The notes under the pieces are model-generated. The model saw only the letters and a program-made list of their open reading frames with translations. It was not told where the DNA came from and searched no databases. From positions 651,557 through 715,556 of the forward strand of contig CM125795.1 of the NCBI GenBank assembly GCA_052171275.1: 64,000 nt of DNA, in the 5' to 3' direction. Source of the stretch: Arsenophonus sp. GTDB taxonomy: Bacteria; Pseudomonadota; Gammaproteobacteria; Enterobacterales; Enterobacteriaceae. How positions within the stretch are numbered: position 1 is the stretch's first letter; each line of letters opens with the position of its first letter. Shown here piece after piece: positions 5,083 to 64,000 of the stretch. Both the position numbers and the translations under genes were made by a program.

Positions 5083-8000
5083 ATTAATTATTTCTTTTTA
5101 AAATTTAAAAGGTGAGATTATCAATATTAAATCTTCTGCTATTAATGTTAATTATTATAAATTAATATAATTTTAATATAAGTATGAATAAATATGATTT
5201 TTAATATCGATTAATATCATATATTTTGATTTTAATATAATCATATAATATGAACTTATCTATTTTTTAATAAAATAAACGATGGACGATTGCGTGTAAG
5301 ATATTTTCTTTTTTAACAAAAGATATCTCTTTGACTTATACACCAAAGTATTAATTATTTAGTAAATTATTATAAAAAATAATAAAATTAATAAACTATG
5401 ATTCATATAAAAATATTTATTTAGTTTTATATATTAAAATATAAGGAATACACAATGATATTTTATGATAATACTAAGAATAATTATAACTATTTTATGT
5501 GTAGTTTATAACTTTATGGTATATGAATATGATAATTTATTATTGGTTACTCTATTAATAAATTTATTAATTTAATAAATTAAAATAGTTTTAATATTAT
5601 TTCTTTAAATCTATAAAGATAGTAGTTATTTTTAAATTCTTATACTGAGATTATTAACGGTTAATATATAGTTACTATTATATTATTTGTATTAAAAGTG
5701 AAAATATTTAATTTTTTTAAATTAGTTTTTTTACTAAAACTTAAAAAAGTATTTTATATCAGAAAATTCAATAAGATATGTTACCTTATTTGTATAATAT
5801 ACATATGAAAGTATTTTTATTTAAATTATTTAAGACTTATAATTTAGTTTGATTAATAGATTATATTATAAAGTTGGTAAATAGTTTTATTAACTATAAT
5901 TTTAATACTATTATTCTACTTTAGTAATAATTATTAATTTTAATCTGATTTTTATTATATTTATTGAAAAGTAATAAATAGATAAATTTATATGATTGCT
6001 AATTCAATTAAGTCTATGGTTCTCTGAAGGTTATTTTTATAAATTATTATCATATATACGATAATAGAAATGCGAAAATTGTTGTAATACTTCTCTTAAT
6101 ACTATATATTAAAATATCAAAATTTAGATATAGTTAATAAACTAATAATTAATTTATTATCTTATTTATCTAGAATCGTAACATTTTATGTTAAATTAAA
6201 TTAATTAATAGATTTAATTTAATATAAATAATTAAATTCTTAATATCTTTATTTAAAATCTATAAATTAACTTAATATGATAGAAATTTCATAATAGTTT
6301 ATTATAATTAATATAATTTATAACTATATTATTATATCATAATATAGTTATAAGTTTTAACTATTCTCTTAAGTACGCACTAAGAGTAATAAAATAATAA
6401 TTTTTGTTTATTATTAAGCATAGCTATTATCTTAATATAAGTTAATTCTTAATTATTTAATTAAATTTAATTATTAATTTCAAATATAAAAATTTTAAAG
6501 AATTTTTCTGAATTCATGTAATAATTTAGTTAAAAACTTTATTATATATTTTTAAAAAAAATTAGATATTTTATAGTATAATTTTTTAAAATAAATAAAA
6601 ATATACATTCTATTAGAATTAATTAAAAGTAATTATTTATTTTTTTATTTATTATTTAATGATATTAATATAGCTATTCTAATACTATGTACTATATTTT
6701 AGTATTGAATATAATAATATTGATTAATTAAGTCAATATTTTGATATTTCGATTTATGATAGAATACAGTAATAAAATTAATTAAAACATAAAGTTATTT
6801 ATTATTAATTATTTAATATCAAGAATAATTTCTTGTTCTAATGAGAATATTTTAATATTAATTATTTGTAAATAAATGAGTTGGATAAAAAAATATAAGT
6901 ATATTAAAGTAAAAATTCAATATTATTAGTTATAATTGATAATTTATGATTATTTTTATAATATTAAAAATAATATATATTATTAATAATAATTTAACAT
7001 ATCAATTATAAGATAATATCATAAGATAATATTATTAAATCTTATTCTTTTAAGGATATTATATTTTCATTTTCTGTTATACGAATGTAATCGCTATTAT
7101 CAAGTAAAATATTCTTATCAACTTTAATTGTTATAAACATAATCACGATTTCTTTTTTATAATATAATATCTATTATCGAGATTGATTATTATATTATTA
7201 TGATTGATATGAAGTAAATTATCATAATTTATGCTAATTTATAGAATACATAAAATATTATTTTTATTATTGATATTTTAATTAGCTTAAATTCTATAAT
7301 TTAGTTTAATTTTGTATAAAATTATTTAAAAATTTTTAATGATCTTTATGATTAATAAGTATATTTATTTTTAATTACTATAATTATGTAAATTTTATTT
7401 TAAATATGTTATATTTTTAATGTGATAAATGATTTTTTATTTAAAAGAAATAATATAACAACTATGTTTTTTTAAAATAAATCAAATATTTTATTAATAT
7501 AATTTAATATAATTAAATTATAGATTATATGATATATATACTTATTAAGTAGATATAAATATTTTATTTATTATAATTAAATAATTATTAAATTTATTTT
7601 AAATAATTAAAATAATAACTACAAATATTAATTTTATGTTAATATAGAATTAATCTTTTAATATATTAATATAAAATAGATATATAAAATATAAATAATT
7701 ATTAATTATATAATATATATATTTATGATGTTATTAATAACTAAATTTATTTAACTTTTATTAAATTAATATTATTAAATAACATAGAAAATAATTTATA
7801 AATATCTTTTGATAAATAATGATACTAATATAAAGCAATTTTCTTAGTTAATTTTATTATCATTTAATTAGTAATAAAAAATAAAGTAATAAGCATTACT
7901 ATTATTTTCTAAATTATCTTATGGAAAATATTTAGATTCAATTATTTAAGAAAAATTAAATTTTTTTTAATATACTAATACTTATTAGTATATATTTTTA

Positions 8001-11000
8001 TTTAAATTATTTATTTTTTTTAATTTATTAAATATAAATAATATTATTTTTTAATTTTTATCTGCTTTTGAAACAAATAATTTTATTATAATTTAGATGA
8101 TAATCTTATTTTATGTTTTAAAAAAAATAATATGGATTCTTAATATATATTAATTTGATATTTTTTATAATTTCTATTATTATATTTTTAGTTTAACTAT
8201 ATTTATAATATATCTTATTAAAATTTTATAATGTAAATCATCAATAAATATAATAATATATAAAATTTTTTAAATTAGAAAAAAAGTTTTAGTTGTTAAT
8301 TAATATTATATATATAATATTTTCTTAATTATTTATAATTTAATATTATTAAATTTCTATTTAACAATTATTTTATGGCTATAAAGTATTTTATTATAAA
8401 GTTTTTACTATTTTTAAAGTAAAAATATCATAAATTATTTATAATAAATTTATAATATAATAAAATATTTTTAAAATAGCTATTCTAAATATTATTATAT
8501 TTAGAATAGCTAAATGATTGATTTTATATTATAAAGAATATTTATTTAAATTTTTTTGTTTGTTAAATAAATAATGCTTATTACTAGCAATGATTGTTTA
8601 TTTATATTTACTATTATTATTAATACTTACGATAAATATTAAGATATAATATAAATTATTATATTTAATAATTAAATTTACTATAATATATTATTATTTC
8701 TCATGAAATTATAATATATTATAATGATAGTTATTTATCTAAAAAATTAAAAATTTTAATCAAATGATAGAAAATATTATAATTCTCTTATATTGAATAA
8801 TATATATGTAGTTGTCAAAAATAGTTATTTTATATCTAACAGCTTTTATTAAAAATATATAAAAATAATAGAATAATACTTTTAAATATTTATAAAATAT
8901 TATTATTATAATGTAAACTAAGTTCATATTTTTATATAAAAGATTAATTATTAATTAAATTTAATTTATTATAATAGTTATATTAATAATATTATTATTT
9001 TAAATTAATTAATATTATTTATTTTAATATTTATAATAATTATACTATATAATATATATGATAAAATTTTTAATATATATTCTATAAATATAAAATTTTA
9101 ATATATCAGGATTATAATATTAATATATTTTAATATTTTATTTATTAAATGATATAATGAATTATTAACAAAAAATTAATTTTAATATTACTATGATTTT
9201 TAATATAAAATTAATATTTTTTATATTATGAATATATCTTTATATGAATTTTAAATTTTTATAAAAATAATTTTTTATATAATTTGATTAAATAGAATTA
9301 TAATTTCTATATAATTAAAATAGAAATAAATATAATAAATATTTATATTTATCATGTAAAATATGTTTTTAAAGTTAAAAAAAATAATTATTATTTTTAG
9401 AAAAATTATTATTCTTATAATTAATATATTTATTTAAATGTAAATAATGAGTTATTATATATTTTATATAAATACATTTTATAAAACAATAACAAAGATA
9501 AATATCTTTAATATTTAATATAATATATATTTAAAATATATTATTATTTTTATTTTAATTTATTATTTATTTTTATAAATGAAATAGATATAAATTATTA
9601 TTTTAAAATGAATTTAATTAAATAATATATTTTATTTTAATATATATATTATATAATGCGATTATTAATATTTTTAAATCAAAATAATTACTTTAAAAAT
9701 ATTTTATATTAATAACAGAATTTTTAATTATTTATTGAAAACATATTTTTAAAATATAAAAATTTTATTTTTATTATAAACTTATAGAGTATTTAATTTT
9801 TTAAAATAATTATTTTATATACAAAATAATTATTTTTGCTTAAAATTATCTGTTTATTTTTTATAAACATATAATTTTCTTATTATTTGAAGATTTTATA
9901 TCATATTTTTAATAAAAAACTATAAAGTTTATCATTAATTATTTAATATAATCTATATTATATATAGATTAAAATATATATTAGATTAAATTATAAATTT
10001 AATAGAATTTATTATATTAATATTATTAATAATTCTATTTAACTTAATAATTAATATGATATGTATAATAACATTGATATAATTTATTATATATAATTTT
10101 TAAAATAAAAAATAATAAATTATTTATTATATTAAATAATTTATTATTAATAAAAGTATTTAAATTAAATTTTTCTAAATATAGATTTAGACTTATCTTT
10201 ATAAGATAAAGAAAAGAATTAAAACAAAATTTATTATCTTATTATTGTAACAAGAAATAATTATTTTGATAAAAATATTTATACGTATAATGATAAAGAT
10301 ATGGTATTTATTATATATTATTTTATAAATAATTAATATATAAAGTGAATATTAATTATTGCTTATATACATGCTATTTACCTATGTGTTTATATTGATA
10401 TTTTTATGTTATTTATACTCGATATCATAAAAATGACAAAATATTATCATATTGTAGAACATAATTATTATGGATATGACTATTTATTAACTAATAAATA
10501 AATACTAATATATTAATTATTAATTTTATATAAATTAAAGATCAATTTTTATATTGAGATCAATAAGAATTTTTTTTGGATAAAATAACTAAAATCTTCT
10601 TATAATATCTATTGTAACAATAGTTATTATACTATCATTAATTCATATTTTTATATGAATTATTATTAATTGTTAATTGATTATAAAAGTAATTGCTATT
10701 ATTTTCATAATAAAGTAAGATGTATATCTTAATAAGATATTATTAAAATTACCATAATAATGAATATAAAAGTTATTTTTTTTTGAAAAAAATCTATAGC
10801 TAATTCTAATATAATTATATCAAATATGAAATAATAAAATGAAATTAATATTTATATTTATATAAAATTTCTTTTATGTTATTAACATATTTTTCTGTAA
10901 TTTAACTATTGTATATTAATTGTTATGAGAACAGAAAGAAATTTTGAATTTATTTTTATTAAATTAACTCTATTATTTTATATTACTAATTAATATATTA

Positions 11001-24080: not shown

Positions 24081-24116
24081 TAAACTGTTTTTATCTTATA
24101 AGATAAAAACAGTTTA
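24081..24116. repeat. Perfect 36-nt palindrome (18-bp arms, no spacer)
   Basis: The sequence is taaactgtttttatctta|taagataaaaacagttta. All 18 pairs were checked. It lies ~230 nt beyond the rluC 3' end, in the region where yceF/maf sits in E. coli. Confidence 0.9.
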
Positions 24117-30408: not shown

Positions 30409-31832
30409 ATGAATAATTATAAGCCTTCATTTCTATTTCATGATTATGAAACATTTGGAAAAGATCCTGTTTTTGATCGACCAGCTCAATTTGCTTGCGT
30501 TAGAACAGACTTAAATTTCAATATTATTGAAGATCCACATTTTTTTTTTGTGCACCTGCTAATGATTACCTTCCTCAACCACAGGCAGTTATTATTACAG
30601 GTATAACTCCTCAATATGCAATATCTCATGGTATTAATGAAGCTGAATTTGCTAAACGTATTCATAAAAATTTTAGTGTATCTAATACTTGTATTATTGG
30701 TTATAATAACATTCAATTTGATGATGAAGTTACTCGGAATATTTTCTATCGTAATTTTTATGATCCTTATGCTTATAGTTGGCAAGAAGGAAATTCACGT
30801 TGGGATTTATTGAGTGTATTACGAGCATGTTATACTTTCCGTCATGATGGTATTAATTGGCCTATTAATAATAAAGGGTTACCTAGCTTTAAATTAGAAG
30901 ATATAACAGCTGCAAACACTATTGAACATACAAATTCTCATAACGCAATGTCCGATGTTTTTTCTACTATTAAAATAGCAAAATTAATTAAGCAAACACA
31001 ACCAAAGTTATTTAATTTTTTTTTTCAATTAAGAAAAAAAAATAAAATTAATAAATTAATTAATATTAATATAATGAAACCATTAGTTTATGTTTCGAAT
31101 ATATTCGGCTCAATACGTTCTAATACTAGCCTAATTTCTCCACTTGCTTGGCATCCAAGAAATAAAAATGTAATTATTGTCTGTGATCTAGCAGAAGATA
31201 TTAGTCCTTTATTAAAATTAGATATTGATACATTAACAAAACATTTATTTTCACTTAAAAGTGAGTTAGTCTATAAATTAACAATTCCAATTAAATTAAT
31301 ACATATTAATAAATGTCCAATTTTAGCACCAATTAATACATTACGTTCAGAAGACGTACAACATATATCACTTGATCTTAATATTTGCCAAAATAATTTA
31401 TCATTATTAAGGCAACATAGTGAAATTAGAGATAAAGTCATTCAAATTTTTAATAAACCATATCAATTTATTTCTGAAAAAACTGATGTTGATGATAAGC
31501 TTTACTCAAGTTTTTTTAGTAAGGAAGACTTTTTAACAATGGCTATTATTCGTCAGACTTTACCGGAAAACTTGCATACATTAAATCTTAAATTTGATGA
31601 TCCTCGCATGAATCAACTATTTTTTAGATATCGAGCTAGAAACTATTCATCGATATTGACAGAGAAAGAAAATCGCATTTGGTTAGATTATCGTCGTAGT
31701 GTATTAACAAAAGATAAGATTACAAAGTATTTACAAACTATAAATCAATTATTTATTGAAAATCAAAAAGATAAATATAAATGCCAGCAATTAAAATCGC
31801 TTGTAGATTATTTAAATCAGATCTACAAATAA
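30409..31832 (+). pseudogene. sbcB: Exodeoxyribonuclease I (SbcB/ExoI) interrupted by a single frameshift in a T10 run; otherwise full length
   Basis: The frame starting at 30409 gives MNNYKPSFLFHDYETFGKDPVFDRPAQFACVRTDLNFNIIEDPHFFF (Exo I motif FHDYETFG). After the T run at 30540-30549, homology continues in the -1 frame, which is open from 30531 to 31832: CAPANDYLPQPQAVIITGITPQ...YNNIQFDDEVTRNIFYRNFYDPYAYSW...HNAMSDV...KLIHINKCPIL...FFRYRARN. This is colinear with E. coli ExoI (475 aa). Eleven T instead of ten would restore HFFFCAPA (E. coli EVFYCKPA). Track ORFs 30409-30606 and 30810-31832 are the two halves. Confidence 0.85.
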
Positions 31833-36300: not shown

Positions 36301-39300
36301 GGATTTATTCATTGACATAAATCCATTTAATAAATTATTTAATCTATTACTGATAATATCTTTTGACTATTTTATAATAAAATAAATACTTAGAATATAT
36401 ATCAATAGTTTAATTAAGATATGACTATTTATAATATTTTAATTTATAAAAAAGAATCATCATATATATAATTAATAATTAAGATAATTTAGTTTTCTAT
36501 ATATAATAATTAAATTTATATTAATATAATTTTAATTATTAATATTAAGGTAGATAAATAATTAAATATTAAGCTAAATAACAAAAATTGAATAATTTAT
36601 CAAATAATAGTTTCTAATATAAAAATACTTTTATATCAATTTAATTGATTTAAAAGTATTTTTGATAGTAAACTAATAATAAAACTTACTCATATATCGA
36701 AATTTAAATCTTTGAATATTATAAAACTAATAATTATAATAGTAAATAAAATTATTACCATTAAATCATAATTTGTATGAATAATTAATGATAAAATGAA
36801 ATAAAAATTAATAGTTTATTTTATTTGAATTATTCAAGGTTAAAAATTAATATAATTTAAAGTAAAAAATATATAATATAACGTTAATAATATTTTTAAA
36901 TATGTAAATAGTTTATTAATCAAGATTAATAATAGTGAAATTATATTTCTATATTAACTTTTAAAGTATAATAAATTAAATGAATTAAAGGTACTAAAAT
37001 ATATTAATTCTATATAAACTATTTTTATTTATCTATAAAATATAATGTTGAAAAATTCATTTTTATTTTAAAATATTTAATTTTTGCTGTTAAATACTGT
37101 ATAATTTCATTAATTAAATAATTATTAAATTAATCATCTAAATTTTAGAATATAATGTTAAAACGATTAAATATATAGATATTTTATGATAATCATATAT
37201 ATTAAAAATATCAATATTAAAATTTATAGTTAATGGATAATTTTAATATTGATTTTTTATTACTGTTATTATTATTGATTAAAAGAATTTAATATAATTT
37301 AAAATTTTTTATAAAAAACAAAAATTATAATATAAATTTATAATAATTATCTTATTAACCAATAAAAATCTAATATATCATTTAATTTCAAAAAATATCA
37401 TAAAAAAAATATTTTTCTTCTATTGTAATAGATTTATTTTATCTACTTAAATTTTATCTTTAACATAAGATAGATAATATCGTATCGTTATTAATAATAT
37501 TTAGCAATTAATTTAATAGAAATTATGATTATAATAATGTTATGTAATAAACTACTTAAATATTTAATATATGATTCATATTCTTATTTATAAATTATCT
37601 TTATTAAAAATTAATTAAGAATTTATATTTATATTTAAAATAAAATAATTAATTAATAATTATTTGATTAAATTTTTTTAGGAAATATTTTCTAAAATAG
37701 TATATAAAATATATTTTTTGATTTCCTTAAAAACTTTACAGATTCTAAGAAATAAATAATATATTAATATATATTAATAAAATAATATTAATTTTTGATA
37801 AATTACTTGATAATTTTTATCTAATATATTTATTAAATAGAACAAAAAAATAAAATATATCTAATTAAAAAAGATTTTAACAAATAAAAAAATAATTTAT
37901 TTAGATTTTTATCTAATATAAGAAAAAGTTTTTACAAAATGATAAATATTAATTTTAAAATTTTATTTATCAGATAATAAATCTATTTTTTAAAAGTTTA
38001 ATAATAAAAGATAAATAAATTTAATTATAAATATTGAACTTAAAAATAAAATATAGTAAAAGAACAGTAATTAGGATTTAATATATAATATAAATATATC
38101 ATCTTAATAATCATTAAGCATTCTTGTTTTTATGATCTAAATAACATCAATTGAAAGTATATATATCTTAATTTCAATAAAACAATATAGTTCTCAAAGT
38201 AACATTTAGCTAATAGAAGAAAAAGTTGATGTAAATGTTTTATTTAAAAAAAGAATAAAGATAAATAGATTAATATTAATAATAAAATTATTAATTATAA
38301 AAGATAGATATATATTGTATAATTAAATCGATTATCAATATAGTAAAATATAGAATAAAATATAATCAAATAAAAAATTTTATATATTAATATATATTAT
38401 TTTAAATAAAAAATTTATAAAATTTAATAATAATTAATTCTGAATCATAAAAAATGATAATTATATTAACCATAATTTTTATTAAAGTTAATAATAAAAA
38501 GTATTTAATCTATATTTATTCTCTTTTAGTGTTAATTATCATTACCTTTAATATTTTTTATTTAATGAATAAGATATTAATAATAATTAGTAGATGAATT
38601 TTAATAAAAATAATAATAGTAATTAATTTTAATTTAAAATAAATTCTATATTTCAAAAAAAATATTAAAATACATTTAACTATATAAAATCTTAAATAGA
38701 AATTATAATTCAAATTTAGTCATTATCTTATGATATAAATATCCGATAACTAACTTATCAAAAAAAATGAGCTAATAAATATAGTTATTCTTAGTAATTA
38801 TACTAATAATTATATGTATGAATAATACATAAAACATTTATTAATGTAATAATAATTACAAATATAAATAAATCTAAAAGAAATTAGTAAATAGTAATTT
38901 AAGTTAAATATTTCAATTAAAATAAATTATTTAATAAATAATAACTGTAGTGTAAATAAATATTTTATCTTATCTTATTTAATTTTTTTAAAAAAATAAT
39001 TTTTAATTCTATAATAATAGAGGTTCAATCAATAAGTATTATTTATTAAATGAATATCTATTAGTTCTAAGTTATTTTTTTAAATAATTTATTATAATTC
39101 AGAGTAAAATATTTGTTTTTATTCTAAAAATAATGATAAATTTTTATAAATTCGATATTAACGATAAGAATTGTAAAAGATGATATCTTCATAAATAAAT
39201 CATTATTTTAATAATATGATATACCTTAAATTAATTAAAATTATTATTTATATTAAATATTTTATAATATAATATTATTTATGTTTTTTTTATAAAAATA

Positions 39301-46193: not shown

Positions 46194-46295
46194 ATATCAA
46201 CTATTCAATCAACAAATTAACTACTATATATTAGTAATAATAAATTCTTCACTACTAATATATAGTAGTTAATTTGTTGATTGAATAGTTGATAT
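46194..46295. repeat. Perfect inverted repeat, 43-bp arms, 16-nt spacer (102-bp hairpin/cruciform potential)
   Basis: The left arm is atatcaactattcaatcaacaaattaactactatatattagta (46194-46236), the spacer is ataataaattcttcac, and the right arm is tactaatatatagtagttaatttgttgattgaatagttgatat (46253-46295). I derived the reverse complement by hand and found 43/43 pairs. Each arm contains several G/C positions. Confidence 0.95.
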
Positions 46296-47983
46296 AAATA
46301 ATACTTTCCACAAAATAATAATAACTATTATATATATCTAGTTAAATGATAATATATATTCATATTTAAATTATATTAATAATAAAAGTAATATTTTAAT
46401 ATAAATATAATGATACTAACTGTTTTATAAGATAAAAACTAAGCTTATTATTTTAATAATAAAAATAAAAATTTGATATTATTATATTAGCAATGTTATT
46501 AAGTAATTTATACTTTATTTTAAATTTAAATTAAATATTAAATATTAATAAATTATTTTTAATTTCATATCAAAATATTTTAAATAAATTAAATAATCAA
46601 ATTTATAATTAAGTATATCATTAAATATTAATTTTTATTTTTCAAGCTAAATTATTAATTAATTATTTAAAGTAATGTATCAAATAATAAATAATAATTA
46701 ATTTTAATAATCAATTTAAACAAAATATTTAATTTAAAGTAAATTATTTTTCTTTAATAAAAAATCATTTTTTAAAAAAATAAAATTTTTATAAAAATCT
46801 ATATAAGATAATTAATTATATAATAGTTAATAATAAAAGATAAAATAAAACATTTAATAAATTAATCAACTTATGAATTATAAATTAATCAAATCTAAAT
46901 TATAATATTTATCAAAATAAAAAATAAAAAATTAAATTTAATATTTATGTTAATAAATAACAATTTTATATAATATTATTTTTTTAGTTAACTAACTTAT
47001 TATTATTTTAAAATAATAAAATAAATAATTAAAATCAAATAATCCAAAATATATTTTTTGATTAATAATAAAACTATTAGAAATATATAGATATTTATAT
47101 AAAAATAGATTTTTAATTAAAAGAATATAAATATATTCTATATATATAAATTATATATATAGAATATTATTAAAAATCAATTATATTTTATGATAAATTT
47201 TAATATTTAAAATATATATAATATTTAATCCATAAAATTATATATTTAAGATATATAAAGTTTTATTAATAAAGAAAAAAATAATATTTAAATTTAAATT
47301 TAAATATAAATAATTATATATTTAAAATAAAGAAAATTCAAAAAAAAATAAAATTAATCTAATAAAAAAACTGTTTTTTTAAAATAATTTAAAAAGTACT
47401 TATAATGTTTATAAATAAAACTTATCGATTTTCAGAAAGATTTTTGAGTGAAAATAACTAATAAATCCATATATTTTATTTAACATTAATAAATCAAATA
47501 AAATTTTATAATAATAAAATGAATTCATTGATATATATAACTACTATTAGTGCAATAGGAGTTATATGATTTATAAAAATATATTATATGAAAATTAATC
47601 ACAATCAAATATATTGTTCATTAAAACTATGATTAAAAATTATTAATCTTAATAATTTTATAAAAATAGTAAATTTACTTGATATTATTTATTAAAAACA
47701 TAAATCTATGAAGTAATAATAAAAAAATAACCACACTTAACATATTTGCTAACTATACTATTAATTATTGATTAGTAAAATTAATTTATTATCAGTTAAA
47801 ATATGGTTATATAAAATTATTTTAATTTTAACTATAGTATAAATATTTTAGTTTCTTATAATCAACTAGTAAATAAAACAAATAAGTATAAATAGATAAT
47901 TTTATTAATATGAGTTTAAAATAAAAAGAATTGAACTAAAATAATAAAACACTAAGTTTATACATAAACATATTTTTAAATAA

Positions 47984-48018
47984 AAAAAAATGAATATTAT
48001 TATAATATTCATTTTTTT
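47984..48018. repeat. Perfect 35-nt palindrome (17-bp arms around one central T)
   Basis: The sequence is aaaaaaatgaatattat / t / ataatattcattttttt. All 17 pairs were checked. Confidence 0.85.
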
Positions 48019-50889: not shown

Positions 50890-50932
50890 TATTTTAAAAA
50901 TATTTTTTATAAATTAATAATTAAAAAAATTT

Positions 50933-50953
50933 TCTGTAATATTACAGATTTTT
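50933..50953 (+). terminator. Possible weak intrinsic terminator after rplY
   Basis: The palindrome tctgtaat|attacaga (an effective 6-bp stem with 2 G:C pairs) is preceded by an A-run and followed by ttttt, 44 nt after the rplY stop. It is weak, and similar structures are frequent in this background. Confidence 0.4.
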
Positions 50954-53900
50954 AACATTATCAATATTTTAAAATATCAAAATTTCTAATTAAGTTCGAT
51001 TATATATTTTAATTATTAAAATATTTACTGTTAGACAAAATGAATGAATTGATTATTTTAAATAAAAATACCTTAATAAAATAATAAAACAGTAAATTAA
51101 TTTTCAACCAAACAGTTATAAATTAATATTTAATTAATTATTTAAAAAGATTTATTTTGATATAATATATATAAACTTTTTTATAAATTTATAATTATTT
51201 TTTAAAAAAAATTAAGAATATTTTTCTTAAATCTGATAATTTTATATAAATATATTTAATTTAAGTTTTCTTAATGTTATCATCTTATTTATTTATTGTC
51301 AAGTTGTTAATTCAAAAGAATATATATAATTATTTATAGTTTATAGTAATCTTTTATTTTTTATTTTAATATTTATATATTTTAATCACTAATTTAAAAC
51401 CAATAAAATTATATAATTTACGTCAGATATATCTTTAAAAAAAAGTTAAATAATTTTATTTAAAAAAAATATTTATTTTTTTAGATTTATCTAAGTAATA
51501 ATATTAATATTTTGTATATTAATATAATATGTAGTAATTAATCCATTTAATTATTTATGTAACAAATGTATCCAATTATATCTATTTAACAAGACTATTA
51601 ATAAACTAATTTTATAATAGATAATAATTTTATAAAATAACAATTATAACTACTATTTTCTTTTCTTAATTTCTATTAATTCTTTGATTAATTTTTGATT
51701 TTTTAACTAAAAACGCTAAATATTTATTTTTAAAAAAAAATAAATATTATATAATTTTCTTATTTTTTTTAAAAAAAATCATTTTACTTAATAAAAATCA
51801 AGTTAGAATAATATATATTAATTGTTAATTATATTTTGATCAAGTTTTGCTGATATAAATAATTTAGAAAATATTTAGATCGATCATATTTATTTTTTAA
51901 TCTTTTATATATAAAGATATAATTATATTCAAATATTGATAATTTTCATGTTATTAAATTTATATTTATTTGGATGCAATATTTTACATGTATAGATATA
52001 TATAATCTATAATTAACAAAAATTATTAAATTAAATTATTTAATTAAATTAAAATATAATTTCTTAAAAAACTTATTAATATGATAAAATATAAAATCTT
52101 ATTTATTAGTAATTTTTTAATGTATTATATAATATATTAACTTATCTTCCTATTATAATAATTAATATTAAATATATTCAATATTAATTAACTCAGATAT
52201 TAAACAAACAATGTAAAATATAAAACTAATTTATAGTTTTGCTATCAAGTTATATAGAAATAAACTTTGATCAAAGCATAACTCTTATATTAATCATTGA
52301 AAATTTTTTTTGAATTATTCTATTCTTAATGAAAATAACTAATTATAGAAAATAATATATTAGATGATTGGTAAAATTTTCAAAACTATCGTGAACAAAT
52401 TTACTAGATTATAAATTAGTATGTATTGGTTTATATCATTTAATATTAATTACTTATTTTATGTTTAAGTAAATTAAATATATATTTATTTTTATTAATT
52501 TAATAGACTTAATGTCTAATTATTTAATTATTAGTTGACTTAATTATTTAGTTTTATTATTTTTTTATTTTCTACATTTTAATTACTTTGGTTATTAGAG
52601 ATAAAACAGCTATTGAAATTTCTTTATAAGCTATTTTTTTACTATAAGTTTATTGATTTTTTTATTTTATATTAATTAGTATTTATATTGTATCAAAATT
52701 TCTATTAGATCCACTATTTTTTTGTAAGTCTTTATTAGTTAATATTAAAAAAATAATGAAATAGCATGTAATTGATATTAATTTTTTAACTATAAAAAAT
52801 TATTTTTGAATAGAATTATTTTTTGATATTTTAGTTTTAAAAATCATGAAATTCAAACTGTTAATAATTTTATAAGCATTTTCTAAATATTTTATCGCAG
52901 CGGTTCATTAGTTCATATTTAATGTGCATATTGATTAAAAAATTTAATCAATAAATAATAATGAAATAAACTAATTATCCTATATTTTATCATATATGAT
53001 AGTAAGAAAATTTCTTAAAAGTTATGTGGATTATCTTGATAAAAATAAAATTTTAATATAAAATACATTAAAAAAAACTAATTATTTATCATCATTGATT
53101 AAATGTATATAAGAATTTTTTACTGAAATAAGTAAAAATAATATTCTTTATTGCTGTTTTTATATATAAACTTTACTACTTGAAATATAATAAAATATTT
53201 GCATTAAGATTAAATGTTTTGAAATAAAAAGATTGAATTCAATTAATATTCAATTGTAGGTTTTATTAAAAATAAATGAAATATATTTTATTTAATTTAT
53301 CATATAATTTTTCGTTTTATTTATATGAATAATATTAGTTTATAATAGAGAATTATTCTATTTTACTAAAATATTCAAATATAATAACTACTAATTTTAT
53401 TTATTTTGATCTTAATATATTTAACTATTATAATACTTTTATTATTATTTATATAATAAATTGTTTTATTTAAATATTAAAATAATTATTTTTGAATTAT
53501 TAATGAATTTAATTTAAATAGTTATATAATATATAAACTAATATTTTATGGTTTTATTTTCTTAAAATTAATAGTTTCAATAAAAGTTATAAGTAATAAT
53601 AAAAGTATGATTAGATTAAGAGATTAATTTATATATTTAATTCGTTAATAATATGTTATATAATAATGCTAATTATTTATTACTGAAATAATATTTCTAA
53701 TATAGAAAATTAAAATAATTTAAATAATAATAAATTTATTATTAAGAAATGCAAAGCATGCTTATATGAATGCATTAATTTAATTTTAGATCTATATTCT
53801 TATATTTGATTTATAGGAAATTAATATATATAATTATATTAATTTTATGACTATTTAGTTATTTTATTAAAAATATACATGTTTATATTTTTATAATAAA

Positions 53901-56900
53901 ATTAATAAAATAAAAAATGAAAATTTAATTTAATTTATGAAAATGTTATAATAAATATAGTTTATTTAATATTTTTATTTATATTAGAAAATTATTTTTT
54001 ATATAATTTTGATTAATTTTAATAAAATGATGATCTAGTAAATCATATTAGCATATATCTAAATAGATTAAATTTTCAATGTGAAAGATTTAAATAATTC
54101 TATCAAGGATTATTATCCTAACAAGATATATAATTTATCTATTATAATCATATATTTTTTATTTAATAAATAAAAAATATATAACAAAAATATAATTTCT
54201 TTGATTTTTTTTTAAAATAAATAATTTAATATTGTGTTTATTTTCTAATAATTATATTAATAATGTTTAATTTAAAATTTACTAAATATTTTTATTTATT
54301 TAAAATTAATTTAAATTTATTTATAATAATATTTATTATTACTTTTATCGTTGTTTATTTTCTCATATAATACATATATTATATAGTATGATATATGTAT
54401 TATAATAATTAGAAAATATAAATTACTATATGAAATATTAGCTTTTAAATTAATATTTAGCTGATTAAATATTTTATTAATCTTTTTTATCTGAAAGAAA
54501 ATAATTATAATAAATGTTAAAAATAAGTCTTATAAAAAAGACTAACTTATAATTTATAGAAAAATAAATGTTTAAAATTATACTTTAATTTTATGTTTTT
54601 TTACTTTTAATAATAAAAAATAAGTAGTTTATTTATCTAGATTTTTATTATTTAATATTATTTTTATATAAAAAATAAGAGGATGTATTAGATATTTTTA
54701 TTAAAAATAAAATTTAAAATAATAATTATTAACATAAATATAATTTTATTTAATATTTAATACAATTTATGAGCAAATTATTTGATTAACAATTTTAATT
54801 TAAAAATAAATGAATATTGTTATTCTATTAATTCGTGATATTTAAAGATATTATAAAAAATAAAAATTTTTTAAGAACAAACTAAAATTTATTTGATATT
54901 TTATTGATATTAAATTTATTAAGATTAAGCTCATACAATATATCTTTATAAGATGTTGAATAAAAAAAATAACTATTGCTTATATTTTAAAGTGATTTAT
55001 TAATTTCTATAATAATATATTTTTAATATACTTAAAAATATTAAAATATTTAAAAATAATATTTTTTACAAATTAATTTTATAAATCATAAAAGTAATTT
55101 ATTGGATAATGGAATAAACAAATTTGCTAACTAAAGCAATTTCTTAGTTAATTATTTAATAATATGATAAACTTAATTTTTAATTAATTTTAAGATATAA
55201 TCAAATGTCAATAAGATAATCTATATTAATATTTTTTTAAAGCGATTAAAAAAGAAAAGATATTAATTTTAAAAAGATTTTTTATAAAAGCCAATTATAT
55301 CACAAAAGTAATTTAATTCACTGTATATAAAAAAATAAGTTAGAATTAATATAATTTTATTATCATAATAGAAGTTTAATATATCTTTAAGTATAAATAT
55401 ACATTAACTTTTTAATTATAAGATAAAAGATTATTTTCGTTTCTTTAATAACCACGAAACATTATTACTTTGATATTATAAACTGAATGATTTTTATAAA
55501 ATAAAAACTAATAAATTTGAAATTAGAAGTAAAACTATCATTAGTTAAACTAGTTTTATCAAAAATCAATGATAAAATAAAAAAGGTTTTAAAAAAATTT
55601 TTTAATTTTTTAAAAAAATATGATAAAGAATTTAATTTTTAATAAATTTCTTTAAATATTCACTTTTTATTAAAAGTATTTAATAAATAGTTATTAGCTA
55701 AATTTATATTTATTTATTTTTAAAATAAAAATCTAAAAAAGCTAGTTAACTAATATTTATAATAATAAACACATTATATTAGAATTTTCTTTTATAAAAA
55801 AATAAAAATAGATTTATAGAAGCAAATTACTGATAAAAATCAAAAAATAATATTAATACTCTAGAAAATGAAAGATAGCAATATTCTCACAGAGATACTA
55901 GCTAAATTATTATTAGAAAATATTAAATTAATTTAAGTTTAAATATAACTTAAATTAATTCATTTTAACAAATAATTTTATCTCAATATTACAAATTAAT
56001 AATTTTGTAGTTTTTATTTCTGAATAATTAAATTTTGATATTTAAAAATTAAGTCATTATTTTTTAATATATTTTATTTTAATAAATACAATAAATTTTC
56101 ATATAGAATGATCTATATACTTTGTTCGTTTATTTAATAAAGTTTAAAGTTATTATTTTAACTATTATAATAATTAATAATTTTGCTACTTTTAATAAAA
56201 TTAATTATGTTAGTTTGATTATTTTAGATTAATATTTTTTTCTTTATCTATAATATAAGCTTATTAGATATAATATATCCTAATTGTAATAATATTACTA
56301 CTTCTAAATAAAATAAGTTATTATTTATTATAGTTATGCAATAAAGTGATATGATAACGATTAAAATTGTTTATGTATTTTAAAATATAGTTAATATATA
56401 TTATTAATATTATTTTAATTTTTGATGTTTCTTTTATATTATTTAGTTGCAATAAGTATATTAATTATCAAATTTATAAATTCAATATCAAATATTCATT
56501 TAATTTAGTATTAAATAATTTTATATTATATAAAATTATTTAATTAAAAAAATAAAATAGCTAATTTTAATTTAATTACATATACTAGATAATTAAATTA
56601 TTTTAATTAAGATATGTATAAAACTATTAAAAATTGAATCAAAAACTTAATTATAAATTATTTTAAATAGATACTTTAAATTAATTTTTATTAAAAAATT
56701 ACTTTTTAAAGTAATTTAAAATATTTTAATATAATAAATTTAATATATATTGAATAATGTTATTAAATAATTAACAATTAAAAATTATTAATAAAGATAT
56801 TAATAGTTTATTTTATGATTTAATCAATCAGATAAAACTGATTATATAATTTATATTTTTATTAGTAATTAAAAAATATACCATACAAATATGTTTTATT

Positions 56901-57249
56901 TTATATAAAAAGTTAAATTTCTATATTAATAAATGAATTTATTATTATATGTAAAAATAATTTTTTAGAATATTCTATTCGAAAATAATAATTAATATAT
57001 TTATAGATAATAAATTATTTTAAATTGTTCTTAATCCTAATCTTAAAATAAGCATCATTTTTTCATATAAATTTATTTATTTACTTATTTATAAGTAAGA
57101 ATATGAGAAAATATTCATATTAGTTAAATTTATTTTACTTGAATGAGAAATTTTATTATAAATATATGTATATTTATACAATATTAATTAAAATTCTTTG
57201 AGAGAATGCCATTTATTAATTTACTATATAAAAGATTGATTAATTTATT

Positions 57250-57290
57250 AATTATATTTAATATAAAGAATGTTTATATTAAATATAATT
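57250..57290. repeat. Perfect inverted repeat, 18-bp arms, 5-nt spacer (A/T only)
   Basis: The sequence is aattatatttaatataaa / gaatg / tttatattaaatataatt. All pairs were checked by hand. Confidence 0.8.
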
Positions 57291-57678
57291 TACTTGAATA
57301 TTAGTATTTTAACTAGAAAATCATAAAATCAATATCAATAAGAATAATATAATAAATATACATATGAACGTTTATTCATTTTGATATAAATAGTTAATAT
57401 AGTCATCATATTTGTAATATTAAAAATATCAACTTAGTAATTACAAAATATAATAACTAATTATTTAGGTATTTTAACAGTAATTAAAAGGATTTTTATA
57501 TTATAATAATAAAATATACGTTGATTTTACTTATAAATTATTATCTTTTTATTTTAAATGGCTTATTAAAAATATTTTAATAAAATACAAATAATTAAAT
57601 ACCTTAATATTATTTTTTAAAAATTAAACTATTATATATATAAAATATAATTATATTTACACGGTTTTAGGGAGAGGA

Positions 57679-59739
57679 ATGATTATTCCAGTAGCAGAAA
57701 AACAACCACATAAAATGGTATTACATGGTGACACTCGTATTGATAATTATTATTGGTTACGTGATGATACGAGAAAAAATAAAAAAATTATCAAATATTT
57801 AATTCAAGAAAATCAATATACAAATACAGTATTAAAATCTGGCATTTCTTTAAAAAAACAATTATTTGCAGAAATGAGTGCTCGTATAGAACAACAAGAT
57901 AAATCTGTACCTTATCTTTATAATGGTTATATTTATCAGATTTTTTATCAAAATGGTAAAGAATATCCAATTTATCGACGTAAACAGATTAATAAAAATG
58001 CTATTTGGCAAATATTAGTTAATGGTAATGAACGTGCTAATGGACATCAATTTTATACATTAGATAGTATTTCTATTTCTGATGATAATCAACATTTGGC
58101 AATATCTGAGGATTTTCAAGGACGACGTCAGTTTCAGATTTCATTTAGACAATTAAATAATAAAAAGTGGCAAAATTCTATAATTAAAAATACTTCTGGT
58201 AATATTGTATGGGCTAACGATAGTCATATAATTTATTATGTTCGTAATCATCCAAAAACACTTTTAGCATATCAAATATATTGCCATTACTATGGGAAAA
58301 AAGATATTAAAGATAAAAAAATTTATCAGGAAAATGATGATAGATTTTACTTAAGCATAAAAAAAAGTAGTTCAAAAAACTATATTTTGATATGTATTTC
58401 TAATATAGAAACATCAGAATATCGATTAATAAATGCTAATAATTTAACTGAAACTCCTAAAATATTTTTAGCTCGTCAAGCTGGACATGAATATGAATTA
58501 GATCATTTTCACGATCATTTCTATATTCGATCTAATTATCAATCTAAACAATTTGGTTTATATGTTACTCAATCTATTGAAAAACCTTGGAAAACAATAA
58601 TATTGCCAAATAAAGATATTGATTTAGAACATTTTTATACTTTTAATAAATACTTAGTTATTGAAGAACGTCATAACGGATTAGTTAATATTCGTCAAAT
58701 AAACTGGAAAACAAAACAGCAAAATAATATTCAATTTGATGAATCCATATATAGTGCATGGATTGGTTACAATCCAGAACCTAATAGCGATATTTTACGT
58801 TATGGTTACTCATCATTAATTACGCCAATATCAATTATGCAGATAAATATGTTGACTCAGAAATGTGAATTATTAAAAAAACAGCGAGTATATGGATTTG
58901 ATAAATCACTTTATTTTAGTGAACGTATATGGATAGAAGTGAGGGACGGAACAAAAGTACCAGTTTCATTGGTTTATCGCAAAGATTTATGGAAAAAATT
59001 TGAAAATCCTATTTTAATTTATGGTTATGGCGCTTATGGTATTAATTTAGATCCGATTTTTAGTTCTACGCGATTAAGTTTACTAGATAGAGGGTTTATA
59101 TATGCATTAATACATGTTCGTGGTGGTGGTGATTTAGGTAAAGATTGGTATCAATATGGAAAGCTTAAAAATAAAGTTAATAGTTTTAATGATTTTATTG
59201 ATGTAACTAAAATTTTGATTCAAAATGGTTATTGTAGTAAAAAACGAGTATATGCAATGGGAGCTAGTGCTGGTGGTTTACTAGTAACAGGAGTAATTAA
59301 TCAAGAACCGGAACTTTATCGAGGAATTATTGCTCAAGTTCCTTTTGTTGATGTTATAACAACAATGCTTGATTCTTCTATTCCATTAACAACTAGAGAA
59401 TATGATGAATGGGGTAATCCTGCTGAAAAAGAAGTTTATTTTAGACTAAAATCTTATAGTCCTTATGATAATATTAAACGTCAACATTATCCAAATTTAC
59501 TGGTTACTACAAGTCTATATGATTCACAAGTACAATATTGGGAACCTGTAAAATTCGTAGCTAAATTAAGAGAATATAAAATTAATAACACTATATTATT
59601 GCTAAAAATAAATATGAAAGCAGGTCATGATGGTAGAGTTGGTCGCTTTAATCAATTAAAAGATATAGCGTTGCAATATTCTTTTATTTTAATGCTAGAC
59701 GATAATAAGAAATATTTCGCTGATTTTGATTTTGAGTAA
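57679..59739 (+). CDS. ptrB: Oligopeptidase B (protease II), S9A serine peptidase
   Basis: The 686-aa ORF is colinear with E. coli PtrB (HGDTRIDNYYWLRDDTR, FVWANDS, RYGYSS, VPVSLVY, LLDRGFxYAxxHVRGGG). The catalytic Ser is in GASAGG, Asp in LYDSQVQYWEP and His in AGHDG. A strong SD (GGGAGAGG) lies 3-10 nt upstream. Confidence 0.92.
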   Translation: MIIPVAEKQPHKMVLHGDTRIDNYYWLRDDTRKNKKIIKYLIQENQYTNTVLKSGISLKKQLFAEMSARIEQQDKSVPYLYNGYIYQIFYQNGKEYPIYRRKQINKNAIWQILVNGNERANGHQFYTLDSISISDDNQHLAISEDFQGRRQFQISFRQLNNKKWQNSIIKNTSGNIVWANDSHIIYYVRNHPKTLLAYQIYCHYYGKKDIKDKKIYQENDDRFYLSIKKSSSKNYILICISNIETSEYRLINANNLTETPKIFLARQAGHEYELDHFHDHFYIRSNYQSKQFGLYVTQSIEKPWKTIILPNKDIDLEHFYTFNKYLVIEERHNGLVNIRQINWKTKQQNNIQFDESIYSAWIGYNPEPNSDILRYGYSSLITPISIMQINMLTQKCELLKKQRVYGFDKSLYFSERIWIEVRDGTKVPVSLVYRKDLWKKFENPILIYGYGAYGINLDPIFSSTRLSLLDRGFIYALIHVRGGGDLGKDWYQYGKLKNKVNSFNDFIDVTKILIQNGYCSKKRVYAMGASAGGLLVTGVINQEPELYRGIIAQVPFVDVITTMLDSSIPLTTREYDEWGNPAEKEVYFRLKSYSPYDNIKRQHYPNLLVTTSLYDSQVQYWEPVKFVAKLREYKINNTILLLKINMKAGHDGRVGRFNQLKDIALQYSFILMLDDNKKYFADFDFE

Positions 59740-60879
59740 TCTTTATAGGTCTTATATAGGAATTAAGGTTAAATAATAAATTTATATTTATACGAGATAA
59801 TTCATTGAATTTAATAATTTTATTATATTTTGTAATTATATAATAACTTTATATGATTTAAGTTATCTAAAAGATAATAAAAAAATTAATATCATTTTTT
59901 AAATATATTTTCTATATTTTATTTATGCACTTAAGAATACTAAATTATTATTTAATAATAATATTATAGATAAATTAATTCACTTTAAATATTATTCCTT
60001 AATAAAAAAAATAAATATTTTTATGATTAAATTGCATAATTTTATTATATTTTACATTAAATTTTTGTAATCTTTTTATTAGACTTATTTCATAATTAAA
60101 TAAAATATATATTTAGACTATAAGAAAATGTTAATAATAATCTCTAGTAGTTATTTTTATTAAATTAATTGATATAATAATCTTTATTTATTTATCAATT
60201 AATTTTTTATATATTAGATTATATTACATTATAGCACCTAAATTAATTAATAATTGAATTAGTTTTATAAATAATAGTAATAATAATTGTAATTGATTGA
60301 TAAAGTTATTCATTATATCTTTCATGATTAAATATCAATAAATTTTTAAATAAATTACTATTAATAATAAATATATTATATTCATTATTATAAGCAAATA
60401 TTTAATTATATAAAATAATTTATTATGATAAATTTTATTACTATATTATAACAAATAAAGTAATATAAATAATCAAAAATTATTATATTTGATATTATTT
60501 AATATGCTATATATGTTTTTTATTAAAATAAAAACATTAAAGCGTTTAAGTAAAATTACTTAAGTTCATTTTCAATATTAAATAAATAATTTATAATTTA
60601 AAAGTCTTTATTTTAATATCTTAAATTATTTTTATAAAAGATACTTTATCTAAAAATTATTTATTTTAATAAATTAATTAATATTATTTTATATATTTTA
60701 TATTAAATAATTATAGTTGCATATTAGACAATGATATGGATATTAATCTATTTGAGATATAAAGTATTAGTTTTTACGTTATTTTTTTATTTTTAAGAAA
60801 AAAATAAAAATTGGTTTTTAGTATTAATTAGAAATTAATAATTTCTATATTAATATGAATTCTATTAATTTTAAATTTA

Positions 60880-60925
60880 AATATTTAATAATTAATTAAT
60901 TAAATTTAATTAATTATTAAATATT
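60880..60925. repeat. Perfect inverted repeat, 20-bp arms, 6-nt spacer (A/T only)
   Basis: The sequence is aatatttaataattaattaa / ttaaat / ttaattaattattaaatatt. Pairs were checked by hand. It is followed directly by a second 11-bp hairpin (taatagataat atc attatctatta). Confidence 0.8.
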
Positions 60926-63167
60926 AATAGATAATATCATTATCTATTAATATATAGAATTAAAATAAAAATAAAAATAATTATTATTTTTAATATTATT
61001 TAATATTGATAATATAATACTAAATTGTAATAATTTTATTATAATTGCTTTATATGATAAAATCATAAACTATATATTAGTTATATTTTATTATTTCAAT
61101 AAATTTAAAATATTCATAAAAGCTAAAAAATAAAATAATATTATATAAAATACATAATATATTAATTTTAATATCAATTAATTCTTATTTTTGAAACAAA
61201 AAGATAAAATTTAAAATTATTTTAGTAATTTGATTAGCTATTCAGATATTTTAATAAAAATAATTATAATAATATTTTATATATATAAATTTATCATTTT
61301 ATGATAGAAGAATCTATATTGAAAAGAAATTAAATATAATAATTTATTAAATAATAATAAATATATTAAAAATAAGTCAAAATTAAAATTGATAGATAAT
61401 TGATTTTATCGTATATATAATTTTATCTAAAATAGAAAATTATCTTATAAAAATAAATATATATTATATAAACTTTTGAACTGAATTTTAAATTATATTT
61501 AAATAATAATGATTTATTTTGATAATATACATATATTTCTTATTGTATATTGAAAATATCAATTTTATTATTATTTACTATTCATAAACGAGTTTTATGG
61601 TTAATATTAAAACAAAAATTATTTTAAAAAAAATATTATATAAACGTATAAGCTATTTGGATAAGATAGATTTAAGTATAAAATAAAAATAATATTATAT
61701 ATTTTATTCTATATATAAAGTTCATTAGTAAAATTATAAATTTTGCAATAAATTGAAATGAAAATAATAAAGTGGTATTATATTTTTTTTAAAATGGTTA
61801 TTTATTTTAAATATTTTAAAATAGAAAGTCATTAATAAAATAAATAAAAAAATCTAATTTTATTTTAATTGATATTTATTAAATGAATTAATAATAAAAT
61901 AAATTTATTATTATAAATAAAAATTTTTGATAATATTAATGATGTTATCAAAAGAAATAAAATTACTTATATGTTATATATTAGTTAATTATTTAAAAAT
62001 TTTTTAATTAATTAATCTGAAAAGTTTTTTATATTTTAATTAAATTAAGATATTATATATACTATATAAAATATATAATCTAGTATTAATTTAATAAAAT
62101 AATTTTTTTATAAAAAATACTAAATATATTTTATAATTTATTTAGCTAATAATAAAAAAATTAAATAATTATCATCATAGAATTGAATAGATTTAATTAA
62201 ACATAAATATAACTTTTGTTTAAAGTAATAATTATTCTAAAAATAATAAATATTAGAAAATCAAATAAAATAAAAAGTAAATTAATAAATTTAATATTTG
62301 ATTAAATAATAGTTAATTAAAAATTAATAATATAGTTTGTTAACATATAATGGAATATATTTTATTTTGATAAGAATATAACATTATTTTTTATTATTAA
62401 TAAAATAATTAAAATACGATTAATTTTTATTAAATATACGTTTATTTAATTTAAACTTATAATTAATTTTTAAGTTTTATAATAAATGATTAAATATAAA
62501 AACTTTTATATCGTTCATTGTGTAAGATAAATATATAATTTTATTATACATAGCATATTATATTAATAAAAACTTTCATAATTATAAGTAATGAGATTAC
62601 TGTATAAAAAAATATAATTTTATACAAAAAATATATGAGAAAAGTATCTAGATTAAATTCATTGCATATAACTTTATATATTTAATAAAGCTTAAATTAA
62701 AACTTTTAAATAATACAATATTCCAGATTTAATAAAACAATAAATTATAGATTTAACTAATAAAATATTTTTTATAAATATGAATAAAATAATTTTAAAA
62801 AATATATTTATAAATATTATTCATATAATAAAATAGTTAAATAATCATGTTGTTAAATTTAATATACATATGTTAGAAAACATAGTTTGACTAAGAAAGA
62901 ATATAGAAACTAATTTATTATTAATAAATAAAGATAAAATATTTAATAAAAAATAAATTGTTATTAATTATGGTTTATTTTATTAATTTAATATATATAA
63001 AATTATTTTATATATTATAATTAATTAATAAAAATATTAAAAAATTATAAAAATAAATTCTTAAATAAAGAATTCTTTATAAAATTTTTAATTGAATATT
63101 TTAATAAAAGTATGTTTTGGTAAAATTTAATTAATCATAAATAAAAACTAAAAGTTAAAATTTAAAT

Positions 63168-63226
63168 ATAAATAATGATTATATTAAATTTTAATGATAT
63201 TCAAATTTAATATAATCATTATTTAT
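63168..63226. repeat. Perfect inverted repeat, 24-bp arms, 11-nt spacer
   Basis: The sequence is ataaataatgattatattaaattt / taatgatattc / aaatttaatataatcattatttat. All 24 pairs were checked by hand. Confidence 0.9.
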
Positions 63227-64000
63227 TAACGGTTAAATTTAGAATAAAAATTATATTAATAATTACATATAAATAATTTTTGATATATTATAATAAAATA
63301 AATAATAATATATCTATAGTAATAATTTATTTATTAATGGATATAGCAATAATGTTAAAATAGATATTTTTATAAATTAAAATTTAAAATATTAAGTGCT
63401 ATCTAAAAGATCAATTCATTAAAAAAGACTTTTCTATTTTAAATAAAAAAGTTTTAATAAATAATATATCTTAAGATATACTATATTAATAAATAAATTT
63501 AAAATTTAAATAGGAGAATAATTTAGAATTATCTTAAAAATAAGATGTTTATCTAAAAATAATAGATTAAATTCTAAAAATTATTTTTTTCAAAAATTTA
63601 ATATAGAATAAATAAGTTTAAATAACAGTTAAATATTATAATTTTATAAAAATATTTAATATATTCATATTAATTTATAGTAAATGAATAGTAATTATTT
63701 ATTTTATAAAAAATAAATAATTAAAATTTTAATTATTATATAAATTATTAATTTAATAATTTATAACTAAAAGGTTTTTTTGAATTATTTATATTTATAA
63801 CTTATTTATATAAATATAAAATTAATTGTTCATTTATAATAAAACTAATTTATTTTAATATTAATCATTAATAATAAATTAAATAATAAAGATAGATATC
63901 ATAATAAAAATATTAATTATAAATTCAGATTTTTACTTATTTTAAACTAGCATTGATAATGTTTTAAAACATTTTGAACATTAGTTTCAATTATACTATA

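Follow-up and report, generated by a model that had tools for sequence, protein, structure and literature searches.

Long perfect inverted repeats in the gene-free DNA of an Arsenophonus symbiont are probably by-products of hairpin-templated copying errors

Why should a degenerate symbiont genome carry numerous long, perfectly matched hairpins in DNA that holds no genes? The question is raised by a 64,000-nucleotide stretch of an Arsenophonus chromosome (C1:651557-715556 of the analysed genome, G000; hereafter the window, to which positions refer unless a contig is given), in which a first-pass annotation had noted nine inverted repeats with arms of 17 bp or more close to a frameshifted sbcB, the gene for exonuclease I (ExoI). 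It had proposed that loss or attenuation of ExoI and related nucleases may have unleashed palindrome formation, which would make the gene deserts a record of a replication-error signature. Here we report that long perfect hairpin repeats in the gene-free DNA of this genome are more than 100 times as frequent as chance predicts, and that they are probably by-products of hairpin-templated copying errors (quasi-palindrome or short-range template-switch mutation) in neutral, extremely A/T-rich sequence. The case belongs to a known process, that which gives rise to template-switch repeats, and the earlier interpretation was right on the process and wrong or unproven on the cause. Template switching has usually been studied at reporters or inferred in constrained sequence, whereas the two sister genomes compared here offer ~1.3 Mb of neutral, colinear DNA in which it can be seen free of selection, so that the rates at which inverted repeats are born, homogenised and decay become estimable. 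Nor should a long perfect hairpin in a degenerate symbiont genome be taken for a regulatory signal by default.

The genome consists of a 2.02-Mb chromosome and a 7.9-kb contig with an overall GC content of 17.9%. Open reading frames (ORFs) of at least 100 codons occupy ~33% of the chromosome and have 30% GC, while the remaining two-thirds have 12% GC; the amount of junk DNA retained is unusually plentiful for so A/T-rich a symbiont. Among public genomes, the nearest is the metagenome-assembled genome of Arsenophonus sp. isolate ER-HX2-MAG3 (CP198939.1; 2,028,578 bp), and our literature search found no publication on either the analysed genome or its sister (ER-HX2, CP198939). The sister genome, G011, is colinear with ours and has a protein identity of 96-97%. 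It was compared over 1.2 Mb, of which 1.17 Mb could be aligned with an identity of 95.1% (97.4% in ORFs and 93.9% outside them), and the junk DNA itself is colinear at 94% identity. Relatives beyond this sister share only ~67% amino-acid identity.

We scanned the whole chromosome for maximal perfect inverted repeats with spacers of up to 16 nt, and compared the counts with Markov simulations (order 1 in 500-bp blocks, order 3 in 5-kb blocks and order 5 in 50-kb blocks) and with mirror repeats, reversed but uncomplemented, which have the same chance probability when A and T are about equally frequent. There were 775 repeats with arms of at least 14 bp, against 21-43 in the local Markov simulations and 73 in the mirror control. 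For arms of at least 17 bp the corresponding figures were 331, 2-3 and 15, and for arms of at least 20 bp they were 131, 0-0.5 and 4. The whole-genome scan proposed by the first-pass annotation yields a length distribution that neither the simulations nor the mirror control reproduces, and the estimate made there by eye, that fewer than one repeat with arms of 17 bp or more would be expected, agrees with a calculated expectation of ~0.1 for the window. The excess is confined to spacers of 0-16 nt, is maximal at 0-1 nt, and falls to background, that is to the level of the mirror control, from ~30 nt. Of the 331 repeats, 329 lie outside ORFs. Repeat density is uniform along the chromosome, and the 9-10 repeats of this length in the window are close to the genome average of ~10.5 per 64 kb, so we are dealing with a genome-wide property and not with a local one beside sbcB. 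Density also depends on local composition: it is 65 per 100 kb where GC is below 6%, and drops to 12-18 where GC is 15-30%.

Perfect repeats are not a class apart. When we counted 20-bp arms with 0, 1, 2 or 3 mismatches, the excess over the null was 116, 122, 184 and 290 loci, respectively, which means that the perfect repeats are only the best-matched end of a range of quasi-palindromes at various stages of decay. The remark that all but one of the listed repeats in the window are mismatch-free is true of that list, but as a property of the repeats it is an ascertainment effect, as the mismatched classes carry an equal or larger excess. By calculation, the chance repair of a given mismatch is ~50 times slower than the breaking of a repeat with 17-bp arms; an excess that is nearly equal at 0 and 1 mismatches thus indicates that point mutation alone is insufficient to account for the repeats.

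Comparison with the sister genome showed that the repeats are turning over. Among 412 loci that are perfect in our genome (arms of at least 14 bp), 22 are identical in the sister, 64 are perfect in both but different in sequence, and 326 are shorter in the sister. Taken reciprocally, loci that are perfect in the sister gave 23 identical, 65 perfect but different and 306 shorter, and these similar counts show the turnover to be symmetric. An ancient burst of repeat formation, followed by decay alone with no ongoing genesis, would sit well with the fact that 21% of loci perfect in our genome are also perfect in the sister, which is near a simple neutral survival probability, but under such a burst the loci perfect in both should not mostly differ in sequence (64 against 22). 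In a separate count, taken over arms plus spacer at 416 loci, we defined pure decay as our genome unchanged and the sister decaying at half the flank rate. Only 23 of the 416 loci were unchanged compared with 69 expected (~5% versus ~17%; P = 1e-11), and the mean number of differences per locus was 4.86, where pure decay predicts 1.86 and the unconstrained flank rate 3.72. Arm differences are therefore ~2.6 times the pure-decay expectation, and repeat loci differ more than their neutral flanks, evolving ~1.3 times faster.

The manner in which the two genomes differ points to copying between arms. Around 30 loci, a figure that includes a few alignment or long-insertion cases, are perfect in both genomes and yet differ by mirrored substitutions or indels, including mirrored 1-bp indels, and compensated pairs of changes were more frequent than in a pseudo-pair control (23 versus 4; Fisher P = 3e-4). 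One example is the longest perfect repeat of the genome, at 46194-46295 in a gene desert (43-bp arms, 16-nt spacer). By the same scan the sister has its own perfect repeat here, with 44-bp arms and a 13-nt spacer, and the two are separated by three substitutions and one 1-bp indel, all of which are mirrored and none unmirrored. Likewise, the perfect 40-bp palindrome at 18296-18335 (20-bp arms without a spacer), which lies in the gap downstream of acpP, corresponds in the sister to a different perfect repeat with 19-bp arms and a 2-nt spacer, with mirrored indels. At the perfect 36-bp palindrome 24081-24116 (18-bp arms), our genome has ACAG where the sister has TTTA, four adjacent differences in one arm only, and with ACAG this arm is the complement of the left arm, which does not differ between the genomes, just as a textbook quasi-palindrome correction would leave it.

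The aggregate spectrum is of the same kind. A<->T transversions are about twice as frequent in arms (2.6% per site) as in flanks (1.36%; spectrum chi-square P = 4e-12); this is the change that repairs A.A and T.T mismatches, so its enrichment points to templating. The ratio of sites that are A/T in our genome and G/C in the sister to the reverse is 1.49 in arms and 0.99 in flanks (P = 4e-5), a polarity opposite to that of decay in the sister alone, as the genome is AT-biased. Spacers accumulate substitutions at 12% per site compared with 6% in flanks, and exact inversion was seen in 4 of the 208 spacers that could be tested, with no such case in a reversed-only control, although these numbers are small. 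Groups of three or more differences within 5 bp occur in arms at 1.55 times the density found in flanks, and difference clusters within a repeat that is perfect in one genome only numbered 65, with 19 in the mirror control and 1 in the complement control. Both the spectrum and the polarity are wrong for one-sided decay and the excess at 0 mismatches is about that at 1 mismatch, which, together with the sequence differences and the elevated divergence described above, makes an ancient burst very unlikely. The sister comparison instead supports the earlier suggestion that the deserts hold the record of a replication-error signature, and it suggests that the hairpin-templated process behind it is ongoing.

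How such a process would work can be set out from these patterns. Non-coding DNA at 12% GC has nearly a two-letter alphabet, in which chance quasi-palindromes are abundant. During replication a nascent strand may then fold back on itself or switch to the opposite strand and copy one arm from the other, which would perfect, extend or re-homogenise the arms and sometimes flip the spacer, and point mutations and indels would subsequently erode the product. The outcome would be a steady state of births, homogenisation and decay, and a steady state of this kind predicts a continuum from perfect to decayed repeats. That the events arise by template switching during replication is suggested by the sequence comparison. 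Searches for recA found no match in either genome, so the homogenisation of arms must be RecA-independent and is not due to homologous recombination between them.

Some observations weigh against hairpin-templated copying as the source of the repeats, or weaken the case for it. Alignment in low-complexity A/T DNA may inflate counts of differences; the test of whether a locus is identical or not is alignment-free and is unaffected by this. In a strict test for template-switch clusters, which demanded 7-bp clean flanks and a reverse-complement copy within 80 bp and which has low power as many clusters are discarded because of further differences within those 7 bp, explicit template-switch-like clusters made up <1% of all difference clusters, the 65 hits and 19 mirror-control hits given above being those of this test. 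Differences confined to one arm were found at 67 loci compared with 63 expected, with an asymmetry z-score of 2.8, a signal that is weak because a background divergence of ~10% and repeated events overlie it. The comparison contains no outgroup, so single events are unpolarised. Finally, inverted-copy insertions accounted for 8 of 285 indels of at least 8 bp, no excess over the 11 of the mirror control. Insertion of inverted duplications was on this count rejected as the main origin of the repeats, and the rarity of such insertions indicates that births from scratch are uncommon and that most change is the small-scale perfecting and extension of chance quasi-palindromes. Separately, we observed two insertions of 17-18 bp in the sister that are exact reverse complements of adjacent sequence and have made new hairpins, rare but clean cases of templated inverted insertion.

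Could the hairpins instead be functional, and kept by selection? They might be terminators that silence read-through, RNA structures, binding sites for proteins or cruciform DNA, or replication signals, with the mirrored changes as compensatory evolution. Compensated changes do exist, a few repeats look like true bidirectional terminators, and the large intergenic palindromes of Blochmannia, of which there are 6-20 per genome, have been argued to decay without selection, which was suggested to maintain them (Williams & Wernegreen 2010; PMC3017870). But about three-quarters of our perfect repeats are imperfect in the sister and the loci outpace their flanks, and as a set they lack the traits of intrinsic (rho-independent) terminators, namely a T-run and placement 3' of genes. 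The first 100 bp downstream of ORFs make up 3.3% of the non-coding area and hold 4.7% of the repeats, so gene ends are barely if at all enriched, and a run of five T follows 6% of repeats against a background of 5.4%. The arms average 7% GC, and the predominant spacers of 0-1 nt are ill-suited to RNA loops. In addition, no match to Rfam 15 at the gathering score was found in the window. Two separate events, each favoured by selection, would hardly produce mirrored indels, and selection would have had to keep more than 700 loci, all different, in a genome that has not kept even recA or mutS. We therefore regard selection for function as unlikely for the repeats at large. A few individual loci are terminator-like, an example being C1:441899-441947, outside the window, which is likely to be a bidirectional terminator: its stem (AAAGCCACT / AGTGGCTTT) is GC-containing, A/T runs flank it and its position is conserved. 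In the sister its 5-nt loop is exactly inverted and the stem carries one compensated change.

Two simpler origins, an artefact of assembly or sequencing and a mobile family of the REP or MITE type, can be dealt with together. The sister genome, assembled independently, carries the repeats at orthologous sites, which excludes the assembly artefacts that had been considered at first. Compared for 14-mers in common, the 331 arms yield 38 pairs of distinct loci, about the chance level that we estimated by hand for sequence so rich in A/T, and there is no REP- or MITE-like consensus, so the first-pass view that the repeats share no family holds genome-wide. Nor are there low-complexity or microsatellite-like arms among them. 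Nothing was found that speaks for either origin, and the chance that one of them explains the repeats is negligible.

We then turn from the process to its proposed cause, the damaged sbcB. The gene lies at 30409-31832 on the + strand and consists of 47 N-terminal codons that include the motif FHDYETFG, a -1 shift in a run of ten T (30540-30549), and 427 open codons. The sister has the same -1 shift in the same T-run, which reads A2T9 there instead of T10, and again both halves are open; its start codon is GTG where ours is ATG. Between the two species dN/dS is 0.16 over the 427 downstream codons and 0.48 upstream, and the downstream value indicates purifying selection since the species split. 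To call the gene crippled was thus correct in that the frameshift is real in the assembly, and incorrect in that the gene is still under purifying selection. sbcB is probably expressed by transcriptional or translational slippage, or else its T-run has been under-called by one base in both assemblies. That this frameshift unleashed palindrome formation has in its favour the frameshift itself and the standing of ExoI as a known suppressor of template switching in E. coli, but the same shift has been kept in two species with the frame open and conserved, the window is no richer in repeats than the rest of the genome, and density in relatives does not follow sbcB. Density (expressed as repeats with arms of at least 17 bp per 100 kb of non-coding sequence, in a 200-kb sample of each genome) is 16 in our genome and 21 in the sister, and it is similar, at 15, in G008, in which sbcB is intact, yet only about 1 in G013, which lacks the gene. 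We accordingly give a causal role for the frameshifted sbcB in the window very little credence. Tying a mutational signature to a nearby pseudogene requires comparative controls, and here these controls, together with the selection still acting on sbcB, speak against it.

A broader form of the idea holds that loss or attenuation of ExoI, ExoVII, RecJ, SbcCD and mismatch repair together raised the rate of template switching, and this would modify hairpin-templated copying as the explanation without being exclusive of it. The inventory suggested by the first-pass annotation does find xseA, xseB, recJ, sbcC and sbcD missing, as is mutS, from both our genome and the sister, in addition to the absence of recA and the frameshift in sbcB, and ExoI reportedly aborts template switching in E. 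coli. None of the 19 Arsenophonus genomes that we searched, those of 3-4 Mb among them, has SbcC or SbcD, and a loss shared by the whole genus must long predate the deserts.

We compared gene content and repeat density in eight genomes. Our genome and the sister, with the genotype just described, both have a non-coding GC content of 12.1%. G008 and G009 share one genotype, with sbcB and mutS present and xseAB, recJ and recA absent, at 13.9% and 14.8% non-coding GC, and still differ five-fold (10 versus 2 repeats in 200 kb; densities 15 and 3). In G004, which retains xseAB and lacks sbcB, recJ, mutS and recA, non-coding GC is 6.9% and density 57. This genome (853,149 bp, sampled at 100-200 kb and 500-600 kb) has 47 repeats in 83 kb of non-coding DNA, the highest density observed, despite intact xseA and xseB. 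G001 retains xseAB, has pseudogenes of sbcB and recJ, lacks mutS and recA, and has a density of 4 at 29.7% non-coding GC. G014 has all five (sbcB, xseAB, recJ, mutS and recA) and a density of 3 at 30.9%, while G013, without sbcB and recJ and with xseAB, mutS and recA, has its density of about 1 at 28.8%. None of sbcB, xseAB, recJ, mutS or recA, taken as a single-gene predictor, cleanly separates the eight genomes.

Among relatives that keep exonucleases, G008, with its intact sbcB, matches our genome and so argues against ExoI as the cause; G014, with sbcB, xseAB and recJ all present, is poor in repeats, at a far higher GC content. Once local GC is matched, densities are lowest in G013 and G014, the two genomes that retain recA as well as mutS, in line with a contribution from lost repair. 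Set against this are the purifying selection on sbcB in both species, the five-fold difference between G008 and G009, the top rank of G004 and the genus-wide absence of SbcCD. Furthermore, density tracks A/T richness in part, both within our genome and across relatives; A/T richness alone shifts density several-fold within our genome, and with only eight genomes genotype is confounded with GC content and with the age of the junk DNA. A contribution from lost nucleases and mismatch repair is thus possible, though less likely than not. Somewhat more speculative still is the idea that hairpin-templated copying may be a leading force shaping neutral DNA here, with repeat loci that outpace their flanks yet remain perfect, with concerted evolution of arms at about the rate of point mutation and with loss of repair perhaps raising its rate by an order of magnitude over repair-proficient relatives. 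If it were true, the two colinear genomes would amount to a natural mutation-accumulation experiment, from which template-switch rates in vivo, tract lengths and genetic control could be read without reporters.

The repeats can be placed among known systems. In quasi-palindrome template-switch mutation, as described in the Ripley model, in the E. coli reporters of Lovett and by Loytynoja & Goldman, imperfect repeats are likewise perfected by templating from the other arm, and the two cases share multi-nucleotide clusters (as at 24081-24116), one-step compensatory changes, inversion of the spacer and independence of RecA. They differ in that earlier work concerned reporters or structured RNA genes, while the loci here, more than 700 of them, are spread over the neutral DNA of a whole natural genome, and in that the one-arm-only signature is weak here. 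Arm homogenisation and spacer inversion by template switching are also described by Lavi et al. 2018 (PMC5941160), Monttinen & Loytynoja 2022 (PMC8794818) and Abraham & Hazkani-Covo 2021 (PMC8604942). The first of these reports that perfect short inverted repeats are over-represented in Proteobacteria compared with simulated genomes, gives preferential template-switch correction of imperfect repeats as the cause, and finds perfect repeats of E. coli to be conserved across strains. Our repeats resemble those of Lavi et al. in their over-representation against simulations, and differ in their far longer arms (up to 43 bp), their location in junk DNA and a turnover above that of neutral flanks.

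Among insect endosymbionts, a 2023 survey (Microbiol Spectr; PMC10434271) found that the raw frequency of inverted repeats follows GC content and is highest in A/T-rich endosymbionts. This survey and the work on Blochmannia palindromes resemble ours in concerning A/T-rich insect endosymbionts with long palindromes that are almost wholly intergenic; neither PMC3017870 nor PMC10434271 combines composition-matched nulls with a test of arm co-evolution against a sister genome, as was done here. The palindromes of E. coli that are sensitive to SbcCD are also hairpin-forming DNA whose persistence depends on a nuclease, and SbcCD is absent here. The repeats described here are nearly all 30-60 bp in total, and SbcCD is absent from repeat-poor Arsenophonus genomes as well. 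Inviability that depends on SbcCD concerns palindromes of ~100 bp or more.

Within the window there are 32 perfect repeats with arms of at least 14 bp, 10 of which have arms of at least 17 bp. Coordinates and arm lengths were correct for all nine long repeats of the first-pass annotation, eight of which are perfect, and the other loci show a range of fates in the sister. The repeat at 11382-11431 (22-bp arms, 6-nt spacer) has one uncompensated difference in the right arm, and that at 57250-57290 (18-bp arms, 5-nt spacer) has one uncompensated A/G difference in the left arm. Larger changes were seen at 47984-48018 (17-bp arms, 1-nt spacer), with several substitutions and indels in both arms, and at 63168-63226 (24-bp arms, 11-nt spacer), with about six differences in the left arm and one in the right. 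The repeat at 60880-60925 (20-bp arms, 6-nt spacer) occurs in our genome only, the sister being without ~40 bp here. The one quasi-palindrome of the nine, at 36621-36663 (21-bp arms, one mismatch), has 13 perfect pairs from its ends before the mismatch, and four differences from the sister spread over both arms. Two further repeats have 17-bp arms and a 1-nt spacer: 47133-47167, which had been placed among those with arms of 14-16 bp, and 56510-56544, which had been overlooked. Twenty more perfect repeats with 14-16-bp arms lie in non-coding DNA within 5083-64000, with the ten listed in the first-pass annotation, whose start positions were all exact, included; another, at 2178-2206, falls just before position 5083.

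The gap that holds the palindrome at 18296-18335 is, by E. coli gene order, presumably the slot of fabF. A fabF HMM gave no detection at E<=0.01 around the palindrome, and in three-frame translation acpP alone is clear and intact, just upstream. Thus, in the region 17700-19063 (- strand), acpP is intact and the ~1.3 kb downstream of it has decayed beyond detection by the fabF HMM; an intact fabF/fabB-like paralogue is found elsewhere in the genome, at C1:565250-566449. Intact enterobacterial genes of the window include lolC, lpoB, holB, mltG, fabH, rne, nfo and ptrB. The mfd gene is truncated, with an ORF at 2623-5082 on the + strand that covers profile positions 334-1147 of 1148, the N-terminal third lying outside the open frame.

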